Positions 13,956 through 22,758 of a stretch of DNA of 64,000 bases are shown here, piece after piece (position 1 is the first letter of the stretch; every line of letters begins with the position of its first letter). Position numbers and translations under genes: made by a program. This DNA comes from Clostridiales bacterium (lineage in GTDB: Bacteria > Bacillota > Clostridia > Lachnospirales > Vallitaleaceae). The DNA lies in contig JAGXFY010000045.1 of NCBI GenBank assembly GCA_024636985.1, forward strand, positions 3,368 through 67,367, written 5' to 3'. The notes under the pieces are model-generated. The model did not search any database. It worked only from the letters and a program-made list of their open reading frames with translations, and was not told the DNA's origin.

Positions 13956-13974
13956 TATGCTATTACATATCAAT

Positions 13975-14190
13975 AAATCGTTGAAGAGACAAGTAGAATG
14001 AAGTACGGATTAACAGAGAGAAAATCATAGTTGAGAGATTTTTATTCCTATTCATTTGAAGACTACCTCTGAGAGATTCTAATACAATCCGTTGACTACG
14101 TTATCGTCGAATGAAGTGATAGGAAACTATTATTAGGGTGGAACCGCGGGTTGACTCGTCCCTTGCTAATGCAAGCGATGGGTCTTTTTT
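13975..14190 (+). promoter_or_regulatory. T-box riboswitch (Thr)
   Basis: AGAGA and GTTGAGAG stem I motifs; specifier GAAG-ACT-A (Thr codon at 14062-14064); T-box TAGGGTGGAACCGCG at 14134-14148; terminator hairpin + T tract. Confidence 0.92.
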
Positions 14191-14258
14191 GTTTTGTATA
14201 AAGTGCACCAATTTGACCATAACGCGTATCAAGTAAATTGAAGAAAGAAGGAGAAAAA

Positions 14259-16145
14259 ATGATTATAACATTGAAAGATGGCAATACATTAGAATTTGAA
14301 CAAAAAGTAAGTGTACTGGATATAGCAAAAACCATTAGTGAAGGCCTAGCAAGACAAGCTTTGGTCGGTGAGGTTGATGGAGCAATAGCAGACTTAAGAG
14401 ATGAAGTAAGTGAAGATGCCCAAGTAAATATACTTACCTTCAATGACAAAGCCGGCAAAAAAGCTTTTTGGCATTCAGCATCCCATTTGCTGGCCCATGC
14501 AGTAAAAAGACTTTATCCGGAAACAAAACTAGCTATAGGACCGGCAATAGACAATGGTTTCTATTATGATTTAGATCGCGCGACACCTTTTTCAGTAGAA
14601 GAATTGGCACTTATTGAAGGTGAAATGAAGAAAATCGCATCTGAGAACTTGGAGATTACCAGATTTGAGTTACCAAGAGAAGCGGCTATCGAACTCATGC
14701 AGGAGAAATCAGAAGACTATAAAGTTGAGTTGATTCAGGATTTACCTGAGGATGCTAAGATCTCCTTTTATCAACAAGGTGACTTTGTTGACTTATGTGC
14801 AGGTCCTCATATTGTTAGAACCAAAGACATTAAGGCATTTAAGTTGACCAGTGTTGCGGGCGCCTATTGGCGTGGTTCTGAAGACAACAAGATGTTAACG
14901 AGAATCTATGGTACAGCTTTTCCTAAGGCGAAGGATCTGAAGGAATATCTAGATATGATTGAAGAAGCCAAAAAAAGAGATCATCGTAAACTAGGAAAAG
15001 AACTTGAACTCTTCACAATGTATGATGAAGGCCCAGGATTCCCTGTATTTTTAAACAAAGGTATTATTCTCAAGGATATATTGATTAAATACTGGAAAGA
15101 AATACATAAGAAAAATGGCTATGAAGAAGTGTCAACGCCGATTATCTTAAACAAAAGTCTGTGGGAAACTTCGGGACATTGGGATCATTATAGGGATAAC
15201 ATGTACACAACTCAAATAGATGATGAAGATTTTGCGGTTAAACCAATGAACTGTCCAGGTGGCATGCTGGCTTTTAAAACAAAGCAACATTCCTATAGAG
15301 ATCTACCTCTTAGAATGGGCGAACTAGGTTTGGTTCACCGTCATGAAATGAGTGGGGCTCTGCATGGTCTTATGCGTGTACGAAGCTTTACCCAAGATGA
15401 TGCCCATATATTTATGACCAGATCACAGGTAACAGAAGAGATCATAAACGTTATTAATCTGATTGATGAAGTTTATGCAAAATTCGGTTTCAGTTATCAT
15501 GTGGAATTATCCACCAAGCCGGAAGGCAGTATTGGGGTACAAGAAGATTGGGATATGGCAGAAGCATCTTTAAAAGAAGCCTTAGATCAAAAAGGGATGG
15601 CCTATATCTTAAATGAAGGCGATGGAGCCTTCTATGGTCCTAAGATTGACTTCCATTTAAGAGACTGTATTGGACGTACTTGGCAATGTGGCACCATTCA
15701 ACTCGACTTCCAATTGCCTCAGAGATTTGAGCTTGAGTATATTGAGCATGATAACTCTAAGCAAAGGCCCATCATGTTACACCGTGTTGTTTATGGATCT
15801 ATTGAGCGTTTTATCGGAATCTTGATAGAACACTTTGCAGGTGCATTCCCTTACTGGTTAGCACCGGTACAAGTGAAAGTACTACCAATATCACCAGAAT
15901 TTGATGATTATGCCAAAGAAGTAATGGCTAAACTCGATGAACAAGGTGTTCGAGTAGAGGGTGACCTTAGAAACGAACGTATCGGCTACAAGATCCGAGA
16001 AGGTGGTATGGAGAAAATCCCATTCCTATTAATCGTAGGCGAGAATGAGCGAAACGCCGAATCCGTCTCAATACGACCCTTTGGTCAACAAAAAAATGAT
16101 GAAATGTCCTTAGTTGACTTCATAGAAAAAGTCAAAGAACTATAA
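14259..16145 (+). CDS. thrS: Threonyl-tRNA synthetase
   Basis: TGS domain; WHSASHLLA; DLCAGPH; RDHRKLG; KPMNCP; GAFYGPKID; probable ATG at 14259. Confidence 0.98.
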   Translation: MIITLKDGNTLEFEQKVSVLDIAKTISEGLARQALVGEVDGAIADLRDEVSEDAQVNILTFNDKAGKKAFWHSASHLLAHAVKRLYPETKLAIGPAIDNGFYYDLDRATPFSVEELALIEGEMKKIASENLEITRFELPREAAIELMQEKSEDYKVELIQDLPEDAKISFYQQGDFVDLCAGPHIVRTKDIKAFKLTSVAGAYWRGSEDNKMLTRIYGTAFPKAKDLKEYLDMIEEAKKRDHRKLGKELELFTMYDEGPGFPVFLNKGIILKDILIKYWKEIHKKNGYEEVSTPIILNKSLWETSGHWDHYRDNMYTTQIDDEDFAVKPMNCPGGMLAFKTKQHSYRDLPLRMGELGLVHRHEMSGALHGLMRVRSFTQDDAHIFMTRSQVTEEIINVINLIDEVYAKFGFSYHVELSTKPEGSIGVQEDWDMAEASLKEALDQKGMAYILNEGDGAFYGPKIDFHLRDCIGRTWQCGTIQLDFQLPQRFELEYIEHDNSKQRPIMLHRVVYGSIERFIGILIEHFAGAFPYWLAPVQVKVLPISPEFDDYAKEVMAKLDEQGVRVEGDLRNERIGYKIREGGMEKIPFLLIVGENERNAESVSIRPFGQQKNDEMSLVDFIEKVKEL

Positions 16146-16149
16146 AAAA

Positions 16150-16187
16150 GTTAAAGTGTCAAACTCAGTCTGACACTTTAACCATAA
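16150..16187. repeat. Short hairpin whose ends resemble those of the 1139-1261 element
   Basis: GTTAAAGTGTCA-(9 nt)-TGACACTTTAAC, then CATAA. Confidence 0.6.
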
Positions 16188-16207
16188 AAACAAATTAATC
16201 CTATAAT

Positions 16208-16245
16208 AAATGTTGAAGTGATATTCACTCAACATTTATTTTTTT
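16208..16245 (+). terminator. Intrinsic terminator after thrS
   Basis: AAATGTTG-A-AGTGA-TAT-TCACT-CAACATTT followed by a T tract. Confidence 0.6.
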
Positions 16246-16403
16246 GCGAAAATTTAAGAGAAAAAAAACGTTTATATAATCAAGTCACTATTACAATCAT
16301 CAAACAAACAACATAAAGTATGCGTAATTTTAATAAGTAAAATCGTAAGAGCTATATGATGAGCTAAGAGTGACTAATAATACCATAATAGCCAATATCG
16401 ATC

Positions 16404-16525
16404 ATGAAGTTCCTGGAACAGTGTGTATGACTTAAGCTAGTCTGCATGGATGCAGACCGCCGACTTTTGGTGCAGGACGCACCAATCGGAGGCCGTAGTT
16501 ATATACACTGTGGAAGGGTTTTCAT
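16404..16525 (+). ncRNA. Candidate structured non-coding RNA with GGA-containing loops
   Basis: 15-bp stem (16418-16432 with 16497-16511) closes two hairpins with loops AUGGAU and AGGAC; outer stem 16404-16413 with 16516-16525; G-U pairs favour the + strand. Confidence 0.5.
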
Positions 16526-16557
16526 GGGACCTCTTTAGAAACATATTCATTTTATCC

Positions 16558-17931: not shown

Positions 17932-18017
17932 AAATAAAAAAACCACAAAATATCTGCATCAATAAAACAGAGTATTTTTTGTGGTTAACTCAACACAGGT
18001 GTTTAGTTCTTTGGTCT
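17932..18017 (-). promoter_or_regulatory. 5' leader with an intrinsic terminator and a competing pseudoknot (riboswitch-like attenuator)
   Basis: Terminator AACCACAAAA / UUUUGUGGUU + U tract lies upstream of the SD; UGUG/CACA and GAGU/ACUC pairings overlap its 5' arm. Confidence 0.6.
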
Positions 18018-18023
18018 AAGATA

Positions 18024-18052
18024 ATTATACAACAGACTACCTTTTGGTGCAA
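18024..18052 (-). promoter_or_regulatory. SigA promoter of the deaminase gene
   Basis: Minus strand TTGCAC, 17 bp, TGn-TATAAT. Confidence 0.7.
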
Positions 18053-18254: not shown

Positions 18255-19328
18255 ATGCGTTGTAGAATATTAATCGGTGGGGGCGATCAAGAGTATAATG
18301 TTCAATTGATAGAAAACCTAGTTCTGTCTAGAGAGAACCAGTTTGAATTAACACTACTTAAAAAAAAGGACAATCTTGAAGAAGACTTGAATTCGAATCA
18401 TTATGATCTCATCTTATTAAGTGAGGAACTCATGGCACTGGCGTGTGGCATGATTCCAGAAGATAAGGAAGCGCGTATGGTGTTAATGGTTGAAGGTCAT
18501 ACGGGGTATCACCTTCAAGGGATGCACACCCTATTTAAATACCAAAAAGTAAAAGAGATTGAGTCAACCATCAATGATCTGTTTCTTAAAGTAACAGCCA
18601 AAGAATGGGTCAACAAAAAAAACGGAAACCTGAAATTAATAGGCTGTTACAGCCCGGCAGGAGGCTCCGGGAATACGACAATTGCTCAAATCATTTCAGC
18701 TTCCAAGGCGAATCAAGGTTACAAAGTACTTTTTTTAAGCTTAGAATCCTTTCCGAGTTATGATATGACCTATCAAGGCACTTCAGCAGATAACTTATCG
18801 GATTATATGATGCATATCATGTCAAAAAGTAATTGGATGATGGGACTTGAGAAGATGAAGTGTGTAGATTCGGTATCAGGCATCCATTATCTGATGCCTG
18901 CCATTAGCGAAGGTGACTTATCCGGCTTTGAACAAAAGATGTGGTTGACATGGATCGACTATATGATTGAAAAAAGTGACTATGACTATATGGTTATAGA
19001 TTTTGCCCAAGACTTTTTAGGAAAAACTCTTGAGCTAATTAAAAAATGTCATCACAAAGTATTTAATGTACGTGGTGACGTTAAGGGATATAAAAAGTGG
19101 TTGGTATTTTTAGAAGACCTAAATAGACTAAGTGAGGAAGAAATCTTAAAGGATAAGACCGTGATTATCAATCAAGTCTTTCCATCATCCAAATTATTTG
19201 TAACAGAGGGTGATATAACGTTGAGTTTTGATGATAGGTTAATAGAAGAAACGGTTGATGGCAGAATTATATTCAACAACCAATCCATAGCTTATGAAAA
19301 AATCGAAAGGCTGATGCGTCATGTTTGA
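18255..19328 (+). CDS. CpaE/TadZ-like pilus localisation protein (degenerate receiver + ParA/MinD-like domain)
   Basis: YSPAGGSGNTT deviant Walker A; VLFLSLE and DYMVID motifs; first gene before tadA. Confidence 0.75.
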   Translation: MRCRILIGGGDQEYNVQLIENLVLSRENQFELTLLKKKDNLEEDLNSNHYDLILLSEELMALACGMIPEDKEARMVLMVEGHTGYHLQGMHTLFKYQKVKEIESTINDLFLKVTAKEWVNKKNGNLKLIGCYSPAGGSGNTTIAQIISASKANQGYKVLFLSLESFPSYDMTYQGTSADNLSDYMMHIMSKSNWMMGLEKMKCVDSVSGIHYLMPAISEGDLSGFEQKMWLTWIDYMIEKSDYDYMVIDFAQDFLGKTLELIKKCHHKVFNVRGDVKGYKKWLVFLEDLNRLSEEEILKDKTVIINQVFPSSKLFVTEGDITLSFDDRLIEETVDGRIIFNNQSIAYEKIERLMRHV

Positions 19329-20571
19329 TCAAAAGACAACCCGTGATCATCATTATTATGATTTAATAAGTGAAGTGCGTAATGAAATGGGACTCATGGA
19401 TGATTTGCCGGATGAGCAAGTTGAAGCCCTTATCGAAACGGCTTTAAAAAAAATGACCCAGAGAACCTATCTACCTCTTAAAACGAGACTACACCTAAAA
19501 GAGAAAGTATTTAATGCTCTAAGGCGGTTGGACATTCTTCAACCTCTTGTAGATGACAAAAGCATAACTGAAATCATGGTAAATGGGGTTAAAGATATTT
19601 TTATCGAAAGAAACGGTCACGTAACGCGCTTGGATTATACTTTTGATTCACAAGAACAACTTGAAAACATTATTCAGATGATTGTATCAAAGGTAAATAG
19701 AGTTGTGAATGAATCCTCTCCCATTTGTGACGCCAGATTGGCAGATGGATCAAGAATCAATGTAGTACTACCACCAATTGCGTTAAAGGGCCCAACGTTA
19801 ACGATTAGAAAATTCCCACAAAAACCGATTGATATGTCAGATTTGGTGACTTGGGAAAGTATTTCATCAGAAGTTGCCTTGGTGCTTCAAACACTTGTCA
19901 AAGCCAAATATAATATTTTCATTTGTGGCGGAACGGGTTCGGGTAAGACAACTTTTCTTAATGTCTTGTCAAACGCTATACCGGATGATGAAAGAATCAT
20001 TACCATAGAAGATTCAGCAGAATTGCAGATTAACAAAGTGTCAAATCTAGTCAGTCTTGAGACGAGAAATGCCAATGTTGAAGGGCGAGGTACAATTACC
20101 ATTAAAGACTTAATAAAATCATCTCTTCGAATGCGACCGGATAGAATTGTTGTAGGGGAAGTTAGGGGACACGAAGCGTTGGACATGCTCCAAGCCATGA
20201 ATACCGGTCATGACGGTTCTTTGTCTACCGGACACGGGAATTCTACCACAGACATGCTAAGCCGCCTTGAAACCATGGTTCTGACAGGTTCGGCAATGCC
20301 CCTTGAGGCGATTAGGCAGCAGATAGCTTCAGCTGTTGAAGTCATGGTGCATCTGGGCAGACTGAGAGATAAATCAAGAAAAGTTTTGGAAGTGGTGGAG
20401 ATTGTAACCTACAAGGAGGGAGAAGTCGTTATGAACCCCTTATATGCTTTTCAAGAAGATGAGCAATCAACCGATGAAAAAGTACATGGTCAATTAGTTA
20501 GAAGTGGTAATCAGCTTCAAAACCGTGAAAAATTACTCTTATCTAATATGAAGGAGTGTTTACCGATATGA
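19321..20571 (+). CDS. tadA: CpaF/TadA pilus assembly ATPase
   Basis: GGTGSGKTT, ITIEDSAEL, LRMRPDRIVVGEVRG, AMNTGHDGS. Confidence 0.95.
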   Translation: MFDQKTTRDHHYYDLISEVRNEMGLMDDLPDEQVEALIETALKKMTQRTYLPLKTRLHLKEKVFNALRRLDILQPLVDDKSITEIMVNGVKDIFIERNGHVTRLDYTFDSQEQLENIIQMIVSKVNRVVNESSPICDARLADGSRINVVLPPIALKGPTLTIRKFPQKPIDMSDLVTWESISSEVALVLQTLVKAKYNIFICGGTGSGKTTFLNVLSNAIPDDERIITIEDSAELQINKVSNLVSLETRNANVEGRGTITIKDLIKSSLRMRPDRIVVGEVRGHEALDMLQAMNTGHDGSLSTGHGNSTTDMLSRLETMVLTGSAMPLEAIRQQIASAVEVMVHLGRLRDKSRKVLEVVEIVTYKEGEVVMNPLYAFQEDEQSTDEKVHGQLVRSGNQLQNREKLLLSNMKECLPI

Positions 20572-21323
20572 CTTTGCAAAGCAACATCTATTATAATAGA
20601 TGTTATTATACTAAAAAAGAATGGACCTGGCATGTAATTTGGGGTATGGCATATTACTTTATTATGGGCATGATTTTTTTTAATCATCTAATCCTTGCAA
20701 GCATTGCATGCTTAGGTGTTTACTTTCATATAAAAGCACAAAAAGCATTATCCATAAAAAAAAGAAAACATAGATTGAGAGAGCAATTTCGTGAAGCCAT
20801 GTATACCCTGTCTTCCTCTTTGTCAGCTGGAAGATCAGCAGAGCAGGCTTGCATACAGACATTAGCAGATCTTCAGATTCTTTATGATCACCAAACCGAT
20901 ATCATTATAGAATGGTCACTCATCGTGAAAAAGCTCAACATGAACGAGACCTTAGAGTCTGCGCTTGAGGATTTAGCGCTACGAGCAGGCGTTGAAGATA
21001 TTCATAATTTTACAGGTGTTTTTATTATGGCAAAAAGAACTGGTGGTGATTTAATAAGGATAATAAGAGAGACAACGCACATGATTAATGAAAAAATAGA
21101 GATTCAAAAGGAAATAGATCTATTGGTTGTGCAAAAACAATTTGAACAAAAAATACTTTCATACATTATTCCGGGCATGATCGTGTTTTTTCAATTAACA
21201 TCACCGGAATTCCTAGGTCCTTTGTATACGACACTGATAGGTAGAATGGTAATGGTCTTTGCACTATTTTTGTATATGCTCAGCCGTAAAATCGGAGAAA
21301 AGATTGTTAGTATAGAGGTGTGA
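20568..21323 (+). CDS. tadB: TadB-like membrane platform protein
   Basis: T2SSF-type segment LSSSLSAGRS...RTGGDL; ATGA overlap with the tadA stop. Confidence 0.85.
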   Translation: MTLQSNIYYNRCYYTKKEWTWHVIWGMAYYFIMGMIFFNHLILASIACLGVYFHIKAQKALSIKKRKHRLREQFREAMYTLSSSLSAGRSAEQACIQTLADLQILYDHQTDIIIEWSLIVKKLNMNETLESALEDLALRAGVEDIHNFTGVFIMAKRTGGDLIRIIRETTHMINEKIEIQKEIDLLVVQKQFEQKILSYIIPGMIVFFQLTSPEFLGPLYTTLIGRMVMVFALFLYMLSRKIGEKIVSIEV

Positions 21324-21324
21324 T

Positions 21325-22758
21325 ATGTATGAAATTGTAATTATTCTTTTTTTGGTTATTCATTTGGTCTACTTTATTTATGCTAAGCGTACACTAGATG
21401 GCAGTGAAGATGCAAAGGACTTTCTGTATATTTTAGGGGCTCCTGTTATAAAGCATCTGTCTTTTGATAAGGTAAAAAGCTTGTTAACCAATCAAGAATT
21501 AGAGAAGTTAACTAAAATCTATCGTCCCATGCATTTTAAACAAGGCGTCTGCCGCTATCAAGGCAACCGAATTGGTTTGGTATTGGTTGTACTCTTCCTT
21601 GGAGGACTTTTTGCCTTAGCAATTGGAAATGACCATGAAATCTCAAGAGAGATGAATCCAGTCATTGAACGACCATCATTTGACCAGGATCCGGTTGAAT
21701 ATGATCTGAATTACAAAATAGAAGATGAGGAAAGCCTGGTCGGTCGATTGCCGGTTAGGGTCGAACCTAAGTTACCGGAAAGAAAAGTAGCGGTTGAGCT
21801 ATTAAAAGCCAGATTTTCAGAGTTAGAACCACTCATGTTAAAAGGGATGAACCCCAATGATGTCTATGAGGATCTTCATCTTCCAAAGAAACCTTTTGGA
21901 GAAGAAGTCACAGTACGTTACACTTCACTTACAACAGATTATCTCAGTCATGAGGGCGTTTTGAAAAGAGATAATATGGAAGAGGCAACACCATATGACG
22001 TCTCATTATTGGTGAATCTAAGTCTTGGAGAGGTGTCTATGCCTTATGTCTACGATTTTCGGATTATGCTCAAGGAAATGAATGCAGTAGATTTTGCAGA
22101 AGCAATTGAAGACCATGTGGTCAAAACGGAGGATAGAATCATTCTACCAAAAACAACAGGTAAAAACGGAATCCCCATACTTTGGTCAACACAGGAAGTA
22201 GGGGTCTCCGGGTATAGAATTTATTTAGTGGCAGTATTAATGGCGATCTTATTTTATGTTCTAAAAAAAGGAGATTTAGATAAGACTTTGATAGCAAGAA
22301 AAGATGAGATTTTGTACGATTTCCCGACAGTAGTGAATAAGTTGACGATGTTAATCAATGCCGGTATGACCTTCAGCCATGCATGGCAAAAAATCGTTGT
22401 CGATCATCAGCAAAACAAGATCGCCAAAGGGATACTCTATGAAGAGATGATGCTGGTCAGTCAAGACATCAAAAATGGCATACCAGAAATTGAGGCTTTG
22501 GAAAATTTTGGAAAAAGAACACAATGTAAAGAGATTATTAGATTTGTCGCAGTTATTACTCAAAATCTGAAACGAGGCAGTCAATCCATGACCATAGCCT
22601 TAAAGCAACTGAGTAGAGAAGCATGGACAATTAGAACAACAACAGCACGAAGGCTCGGTGAGAAGGCAAGTACCAAACTGCTACTGCCTATGGGAATCAG
22701 CTTGATTACAGTACTCATCATAGTTATGGTACCTACGTTCATGGCTATGAAATTATAG
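21325..22758 (+). CDS. tadC: TadC-like membrane platform protein with a large extracytoplasmic insert
   Basis: C-terminal LTMLINAGMT...GEKASTKLLLPM T2SSF segment; ~230-aa soluble region between TM segments. Confidence 0.8.
   Translation: MYEIVIILFLVIHLVYFIYAKRTLDGSEDAKDFLYILGAPVIKHLSFDKVKSLLTNQELEKLTKIYRPMHFKQGVCRYQGNRIGLVLVVLFLGGLFALAIGNDHEISREMNPVIERPSFDQDPVEYDLNYKIEDEESLVGRLPVRVEPKLPERKVAVELLKARFSELEPLMLKGMNPNDVYEDLHLPKKPFGEEVTVRYTSLTTDYLSHEGVLKRDNMEEATPYDVSLLVNLSLGEVSMPYVYDFRIMLKEMNAVDFAEAIEDHVVKTEDRIILPKTTGKNGIPILWSTQEVGVSGYRIYLVAVLMAILFYVLKKGDLDKTLIARKDEILYDFPTVVNKLTMLINAGMTFSHAWQKIVVDHQQNKIAKGILYEEMMLVSQDIKNGIPEIEALENFGKRTQCKEIIRFVAVITQNLKRGSQSMTIALKQLSREAWTIRTTTARRLGEKASTKLLLPMGISLITVLIIVMVPTFMAMKL

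Follow-up and report, generated by a model that had tools for sequence, protein, structure and literature searches.

Which signal, if any, is read by the leader of a purine deaminase gene in a clostridial genome of the family Vallitaleaceae? The gene lies on the minus strand of a 64,000-nt stretch of DNA from a Clostridiales bacterium (contig JAGXFY010000045.1 of assembly GCA_024636985.1), referred to here as the window; positions without a further label are those of the window. An initial annotation, made from the sequence alone, proposed that the leader folds into a pseudoknot resembling class I preQ1 (preQ1-I) aptamers, positioned as an ON switch before an orphan purine-type deaminase. In this leader and its relatives, we observe a conserved element that is associated with the deaminase gene, has the potential to pair as a pseudoknot, and takes part in mutually exclusive structures. 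We consider it probable that the leader is a new preQ1-I-like ON riboswitch for the deaminase, with 8-oxoguanine as its most likely ligand; the binding of a ligand, its identity, and the three-dimensional fold of the RNA are inferred.

The deaminase gene and its leader

Among named organisms, Petrocella sp. FN5 (Vallitaleaceae) is the closest relative, and its deaminase is 98% identical to that of the window. The gene and the elements preceding it are arranged as follows.

18052–18024, minus strand: promoter, recognised from sequence (-35 TTGCAC at 18052–18047, 17-nt spacer, -10 TATAAT at 18029–18024)
18017–17920, minus strand: 5′ leader of the deaminase mRNA, about 98 nt, from sequence and fold (transcription start site inferred)
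17986–17936, minus strand: intrinsic terminator, with a AACCACAAA.../...UUUGUGGUU stem, an inner UCUG/CAGA stem, then U7 (17942–17936)
17930–17925, minus strand: Shine-Dalgarno (SD) sequence AGGAGG, from sequence
17919–17917, minus strand: ATG start codon of the deaminase, from sequence
17919–16558, minus strand: 8-oxoguanine deaminase gene, 453 aa, monocistronic

The gene product passes the cut-off of the NCBIfam equivalog NF006055 (8-oxoguanine deaminase) with 581.5 bits against 532; among solved structures it is closest to 3HPA and 7WW2 (E about 1e-125), and all three contain the active-site stretch APCSPFSV. Judged by its sequence, the enzyme is a well-supported 8-oxoguanine deaminase: its description as a purine-type deaminase holds, while the term orphan has to be dropped given the equivalog match and the two close structures. 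This identity narrows the likely ligand of the leader. N2,N2-dimethylguanine hydrolases, recently described from the same cluster, carry a CQ..N signature at the active-site stretch (PMC13054789); such an activity is unlikely for the window enzyme, which has CSPFS like 3HPA and 7WW2, not CQ..N.

The promoter has a perfect -10 hexamer, and its -35 hexamer agrees with the consensus TTGACA at TTG only (3/6), which is why it is missing from the list of a consensus scan. The arrangement of TTGCAC or TTGCAT, a 17-nt spacer, and TATAAT is also present in the close relatives L001–L003, bearing out the promoter that had been placed before the leader. A 52-codon ORF (18148–17990, minus strand) that ends within the motif was set aside; its start lies upstream of the promoter.

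The deaminase gene is flanked by a divergent Tad-type pilus operon and a convergent thrS gene. The pilus operon (Tad/Flp-type; 18255–22758, plus strand) encodes an AAA_31 protein, a TadA/CpaF-like ATPase (T2SSE), an unannotated 255-aa ORF, and a T2SSF-domain protein. Directly 5′ of thrS (14238–16145) lies a T-box leader (RF00230, 106.5 bits; 13972–14166, plus strand), which is an ordinary, known arrangement. The gap between the convergent deaminase and thrS genes is 412 nt (16146–16557), and a 16-bp terminator-like hairpin is found at 16183–16149 (minus strand); the deaminase mRNA may therefore carry a 3′ UTR of about 400 nt.

A conserved pseudoknot core

The segment UGUG-UU-GAGU-UAAC-CACA-AAAAAU-ACUC, at 17997–17970 on the minus strand, contains the P1 and P2 helices and the A-rich L3 of an H-type pseudoknot exactly as the initial annotation had claimed. 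Its parts are listed below.

18000–17968, minus strand: conserved core, 33 nt (covariance model R1, 45.7 bits, E 2.7e-8)
17997–17994, minus strand: P1 5′ strand, UGUG; GUG is invariant and the outer pair covaries
17993–17992, minus strand: L1, UU; an invariant U (equivalent of U6 in preQ1-I, PMC11625349) and one variable nucleotide
17991–17988, minus strand: P2 5′ strand, GAGU; ACGU/ACGU in L005 and L163
17987–17984, minus strand: L2, UAAC; invariant, its final C being the candidate ligand-pairing "specificity" base
17983–17980, minus strand: P1 3′ strand, CACA; doubles as the base of the terminator 5′ arm
17979–17974, minus strand: L3, AAAAAU; A-rich, with an invariant U at its end, directly 5′ of the P2 3′ strand
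17973–17970, minus strand: P2 3′ strand, ACUC; located inside the terminator hairpin

A pseudoknot of 4 + 4 bp in a single leader is not significant alone; its significance comes from conservation. The consensus core reads GUGU-N-GAGU-UAAC-CAC-N(2-5)-AAU-(0-2 nt)-ACUC. The U after the P1 5′ strand and the C before the P1 3′ strand, both pointed out in advance as preQ1-I features, are present, and the U and the AC are invariant in 37/37 sequences. The deviations that had been named alongside them, a short P1 and a U in L3, are likewise real and invariant. To our knowledge, a P1 of 3–4 bp is shorter than that of any validated riboswitch.

The pseudoknot pairing is formed in 96.2% of cells over 26 distinct sequences, a value equalled by 0/500 shuffles, and slid controls reach 27–51%. 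Related sequences can exceed such shuffles without any structure. Two-sided changes are found in three of the eight pairs; the other five never vary and say nothing for or against the fold. The outer P1 pair occurs as AU, UA, CG or UG, so that a fourth P1 pair is formed in 22 of the 26 sequences and a non-pair is left in 4. In L005 and L163, P2 reads ACGU/ACGU instead of GAGU/ACUC, a double compensatory substitution that probably arose once; P2 is imperfect in L022 and in L028/L029. In the alignment of orthologous leaders, P1/P2 pairing is thus maintained with some compensatory changes, and we regard this covariation, read from aligned sequences, as real but thin. That GUG/CAC never varies would fit tertiary contacts that depend on sequence, by analogy with the docking of L3 on P1 in preQ1-I; this is an inference. 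A fifth P1 or P2 pair and other extended helices were sought by eye in the alignment, and none was consistent.

Distribution and association with the deaminase gene

For comparison of leaders, 80 orthologous deaminase loci were retrieved, and 23 of these have the core 35–76 nt 5′ of the start codon. Its hosts are Petrocella/Vallitaleaceae, many Clostridium species (including C. ljungdahlii, C. ragsdalei, C. beijerinckii, C. tyrobutyricum, and C. arbusti), Desulfosporosinus, unclassified Bacillota, and metagenomes. The pseudoknot, about 30 nt long and almost invariant, is present in the deaminase leaders of about 40 clostridial genomes and metagenome contigs. Eighteen core positions do not vary at all, while the flanks cannot be aligned and the proteins are only 68–75% identical to that of the window.

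In the pooled loci, model R1 gives 37 carrier matches (38.8–51.7 bits) and none in 16 non-carrier deaminase loci. The initial annotation had named a lack of conserved P1/P2 in orthologous leaders as grounds for its refutation; with the core conserved in 37 loci, this did not occur. R1 also finds a single strong match (40–51 bits) per genome in 7/7 carrier genomes, namely the window's own and six more. Matches are found in 12 of 299 Clostridiaceae genomes and in 3 of 103 genomes from the order of Desulfosporosinus, and in a class-wide sample of 399 Clostridia genomes the only strong match is in the window's own genome. The genome sets searched are subsamples, and the E-values of R1 are rough.

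All motif matches checked by tblastn (L151 left out) are located just 5′ of a deaminase homologue, in most cases at 35–76 nt and in L038 and L119 at about 190–260 nt. An independent exact-pattern scan of metagenomes, in which the outer two P2 pairs were left free, returned 45 matches, 12 of them ahead of a deaminase. The outer P2 pairs are complementary in all 12 deaminase-linked matches versus 7 of the 33 others, the latter being close to chance. In a maximum-likelihood tree of the deaminases, all 23 motif rows fall within one 37-row clade (100/99 support), and 0/500 label shuffles are as clustered; the non-carriers within this clade are mostly genes absorbed into purine-catabolic operons. 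No conserved regulator gene adjoins the deaminase in the three carrier loci examined (the window, L006, and L030): the neighbours are MFS and GGDEF genes in L006 and beta-lactamase-fold and NAGPA genes in L030, unrelated to those of the window.

Several other features were noted in these loci. The two Clostridium contigs with the longer distance (L038 1222–1500, L119 2911–3140) carry an extra ~140–210 nt between the motif and terminator and the deaminase SD; the insert lies within the T-rich post-terminator tract (TTTTTTATT...TTTTTTTATTTTAAGGAGG) and resembles a small insertion element. The class-wide sample also gave just two weak R1 matches, at L082 1501–1533 and L083 1501–1533 (minus strand; 26–28 bits; two genomes of one genus), which were rejected as a different mini-hairpin, UUAAG-UUAACCC-CUUAA-AAAACUA, which has a preQ1-I-like 3′ tail. 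Desulfosporosinus deaminases outside the motif clade (L053, L056, L061, L062, and L066) have a strong hairpin in common, AGAGGCAGCGGUUCUUGCACAGGAACCACUGCCUCUUUUU, about 30–140 nt 5′ of the deaminase start, just before the SD in most and further upstream in L056; it could be the terminator of the upstream gene or a different attenuator. Finally, an unrelated fluoride riboswitch (RF01734, 38.8 bits) is found 3′ of the deaminase locus of Clostridium brassicae (L036 2235–2323, plus strand).

Two expression platforms with the same ON logic

In the window, the terminator (CCACAAAA.../...UUUUGUGG plus U7, folded over 17984–17936) is predicted at -11.6 kcal/mol (z -3.4, with 0/200 shuffles as stable) and dominates the minimum free energy structure of the whole leader. 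This matches the earlier description of a leader of about 95 nt with a strong terminator ahead of the SD, the leader measuring about 98 nt. The 5′ arm of the terminator consists of the AAC of L2 (including the specificity C), the P1 3′ strand, and L3, and therefore the pseudoknot and the terminator are mutually exclusive. That the pseudoknot occupies the terminator's 5′ arm had been claimed for the window; across relatives, the 3′ half of the aptamer is the strand captured by either a terminator or the SD.

The terminator class comprises the window, L001–L009, L012, L016, L017, L022, L028, L029, L031, L096, L102, L163, and others. Here, the hairpin begins at (A)ACCAC, runs through a lineage-specific L3, and is followed by a U-tract, with covariation between L3 and the 3′ arm. 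The SD-sequestering class (L011, L013, L020, L025, L030, L088, L091, L092, L098, and L101) has no U-tract. In these leaders, GUUAACCAC(UU) of the aptamer pairs with the SD, for example with GGUUAAU, GGGGGUAAC or AAGGUGGUU; as an alternative, ACUC...GAG pairs into GAGGAGG. When the aptamer nucleotides are blocked in folding, the alternative fold drops from between -7 and -20 to about 0 to -6 kcal/mol in nearly all leaders, the exception being L004, which retains -9.3 kcal/mol.

Both platforms compete for the 3′ half of the aptamer, and therefore a folded aptamer corresponds to an expressed gene. The aptamer core is the only thing that the two classes have in common, and one aptamer on differing platforms without a conserved neighbouring regulator (in three loci) is a classic riboswitch signature. 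The ON-switch architecture proposed for this deaminase gene is supported by every computational test that was run; a response to ligand is inferred only. An upstream AACUAAACA/UGUUGAGUU hairpin, reported as compatible with termination, does exist, but it was not retained as part of the mechanism: it is weak (-1.9 kcal/mol) and not conserved, being missing from the nearest relatives, L001 and L003.

Relation to preQ1-I riboswitches

preQ1-I aptamers are H-type pseudoknots in which the C directly 5′ of the P1 3′ strand pairs with the ligand, in the context AC in types II and III and UC in type I (PMC11625349). The U after the P1 5′ strand reads N9-H, an adenine in L3 reads N3/N2, and the G of the P1 closing pair contacts the 7-aminomethyl group; according to a 2024 review, all class I types bind preQ1 (PMC11625349). 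The motif is most readily compared with type II (RF00522; T. tengcongensis, B. subtilis): it is a small H-type pseudoknot in which P1 is closed by a G-C pair and P2 has 4 bp. L1 has 2 nt, the first being U, the 4-nt L2 ends in an AC that abuts the P1 3′ strand, and L3 is A-rich. Its stem-loop GUGUCGAGUUAACCAC is identical to GGGUCGCAGUAACCCC of T. tengcongensis at 11 of 16 positions, including UC in L1 and UAAC in L2 (PMC10639078).

The motif differs from preQ1-I in other respects. Its P1 consists of 3 invariant pairs and 1 variable pair, whereas P1 of preQ1-I has 5 bp; the P2-proximal pair is U-A instead of G-C; and the last nucleotide of L3 is an invariant U where preQ1-I has a ligand-contacting A (A29/A30), an equivalence of position that is inferred from secondary structure. 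In all matches checked, the motif precedes an 8-oxoguanine deaminase gene and never a que gene. It is furthermore wired as an ON switch: the SD is distinct from the P2 3′ strand, and folding of the aptamer competes with a terminator or an anti-SD.

Searches with RF00522 at E<=10 on 601 nt and 51 nt of the leader gave no match (gathering threshold 39 bits), and over seven carrier genomes the motif leaders are absent among matches of about 13 bits or more; non-detection thus means below about 9–13 bits. Model R1, in turn, found nothing on the canonical-looking preQ1-I loci of carrier genomes. The designation preQ1-I-like can therefore be kept, and demonstrable membership in preQ1-I cannot, since the RNA fails the Rfam preQ1 model. 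The searches proposed with Rfam preQ1 and purine models gave no match.

Five carrier genomes each contain, by eye, a separate canonical-looking type I preQ1-I element, scoring 23.5–31 bits and thus under the Rfam 39-bit cut-off. The one in the window's genome, CAGUCAG-UUCGUAACCAUC-CUGACU-AUAAACAAAACUAGGAGG, is found at L129 1501–1548 (G000:C12:4702–4749, plus strand; 25.9 bits), and its P2 3′ strand is located within the SD of a gene for the transporter QueT (PF06177). The gene downstream of such an element was checked in the window's genome only.

Proposed mechanism and ligand

In the mechanism that we propose, a metabolite-sensing RNA of about 28–31 nt within the leader would turn the deaminase gene ON. 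It would fold as an H-type pseudoknot with P1 (N)GUG/CAC(N), L1 U-N, P2 GAGU/ACUC, L2 UAAC, and an A-rich L3 with a terminal U. In the absence of ligand, the aptamer's 3′ half (AAC of L2, the P1 3′ strand, and L3) would pair with a downstream complement. In the window and most relatives, the intrinsic terminator would then form and transcription would stop ahead of the gene; in the other relatives, the same aptamer nucleotides would pair with the SD, thereby blocking translation. A bound guanine-like base is proposed to form a pair with the invariant C just ahead of the P1 3′ strand while stacking between the P1 and P2 helices. This would lock the pseudoknot and withhold the terminator 5′ arm or the anti-SD, resulting in expression.

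As to the ligand, inference alone ranks 8-oxoguanine as most likely and guanine second. 8-Oxoguanine is favoured because the controlled gene is always an 8-oxoguanine deaminase gene and because an 8-oxoguanine ON riboswitch of Paenibacillaceae provides a precedent (PMC10556655). Guanine remains possible because the window's genome yielded no amidohydrolase-type guanine deaminase above cut-off, so that the enzyme could function in guanine catabolism. A 7-deazaguanine (preQ1 or preQ0) remains possible because of the preQ1-I-like scaffold. The host genera of the motif are known as strict anaerobes; 8-oxoguanine may be scarce in such hosts, which counts against it as the ligand.

Alternative explanations

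The same fold and ON logic would be expected if the ligand were a 7-deazaguanine such as preQ1, preQ0 or a related base. The motif would then be a functional relative of preQ1-I, and the deaminase that it induces would act on bases resembling queuosine precursors or protect against them. Such a ligand would account for the similarity of the stem-loop to the type II aptamer (11/16 identical) and for the kept ligand contacts, namely the U of L1, the AC of L2, and the G-C pair closing P1. We nevertheless regard it as unlikely: the position equivalent to A29/A30 is an invariant U, RF00522 and R1 detect none of each other's members, the motif does not occur ahead of any que gene, the enzyme has the signature of characterised 8-oxoguanine deaminases, and each of five carrier genomes already contains a separate canonical-looking type I preQ1-I element (24–31 bits, under the 39-bit cut-off). 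Rather than sensing a metabolite directly, the core might be recognised by an RNA-binding protein that acts in trans, as an antiterminator or translational activator like PyrR, HutP or LicT. Near-invariant primary sequence with little covariation is equally expected of protein recognition, and helices this short might require a protein for stability. This explanation, which we also judge unlikely, has to contend with the absence of a conserved gene beside the deaminase in the three carrier loci examined, the lack of any match to an Rfam antiterminator motif, and the presence of the element in at least three bacterial families, where it apparently moves with the gene alone. Its layout, moreover, matches a known ligand-binding pseudoknot precisely in the ligand-contacting loops.

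It is also conceivable that no ligand is involved, the leader being a constitutive attenuator, RNA thermosensor or stability element in which the pseudoknot pairing is a by-product of a conserved terminator or anti-SD. Pairings of the terminator and with the SD are indeed the best-supported structures and covary with the variable L3, and covariation in the pseudoknot is limited. What this leaves unexplained is the invariant GUGU, GAGU, and UAAC located 5′ of the terminator or anti-SD, the ACUC in the terminator loop, and the 12/12 versus 7/33 complementarity of P2; nor does it fit that two different platforms have only the aptamer in common. We therefore consider a ligand-independent element quite improbable. 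We give very little credence to the idea that a transcription factor uses the conserved 33 bp as a DNA operator. The stretch does lie downstream of the promoter and contains the palindrome GTTAAC as well as GTG...CAC, but it is not palindromic beyond these, its distance from the -10 varies between about 13 nt and more than 50 nt, it is fused strand-specifically to a terminator 5′ arm or anti-SD whose partner covaries, and no conserved regulator is found nearby in the carrier loci examined. A ligand-responsive preQ1-I-like ON riboswitch thus remains our preferred reading of the leader.

Comparison with known systems and implications

The pseudoknot element appears to be undescribed, as no Rfam 15 family and no paper in the literature searched was found for it. 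The leader was compared with Rfam 15 at permissive thresholds, and the window and 40 loci at gathering thresholds; no preQ1, purine, xanthine or other riboswitch family was returned for the element. A literature search for a second 8-oxoguanine class, a preQ1-I variant or a candidate associated with deaminases or chlorohydrolases yielded only the guanine-I variant of Paenibacillaceae and the NMT1 motif.

A more specific proposal is that the motif constitutes a new riboswitch class with the smallest natural aptamer (about 28–31 nt), having descended from the type II preQ1-I scaffold or arrived at it by convergence, and having been re-tuned to 8-oxoguanine through the A-to-U change in L3, the U-A P2-proximal pair, and the shortened P1. 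We put this forward tentatively, as a possibility that we hold with less than even confidence. If true, it would be the first preQ1-I relative with altered specificity and would give strict anaerobes an RNA that senses oxidised guanine. Validation would reset the lower size limit for natural aptamers, provide the first natural preQ1-I pseudoknot scaffold with a different gene set and ON logic, and offer a handle on when strict anaerobes meet 8-oxoguanine. An ON switch of about 30 nt would also be useful for synthetic biology in the carriers C. ljungdahlii, C. beijerinckii, and C. tyrobutyricum.

Among known systems, the Xanthine-I (NMT1) motif also controls purine-catabolic amidohydrolases, related to isoxanthopterin and 8-oxoguanine deaminases (PMC5737381). 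Its targets are thus similar to those of our motif, but it has a different fold, is found in other taxa, and has no Rfam match in the window. The closest functional counterpart is the 8-oxoguanine riboswitch of Paenibacillaceae, a variant of guanine-I that controls 8-oxoguanine deaminase genes as an ON switch; both elements are associated exclusively with 8-oxoguanine deaminases and turn expression ON by disruption of a terminator (PMC10556655). No match to RF00167 or the purine clan was found in the window or in 12 carrier loci, and the element thus lacks the three-stem-junction purine aptamer without U47 that defines this variant. The guanine-I variant is a three-stem junction of about 70 nt in Paenibacillaceae, whereas the motif described here is a pseudoknot of about 30 nt in Clostridium, Desulfosporosinus, and Vallitaleaceae. 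If validated, the latter would represent a second, structurally independent riboswitch class for 8-oxoguanine (or a guanine analogue), supporting the sensing of oxidised guanine as a recurrent need met by RNA.
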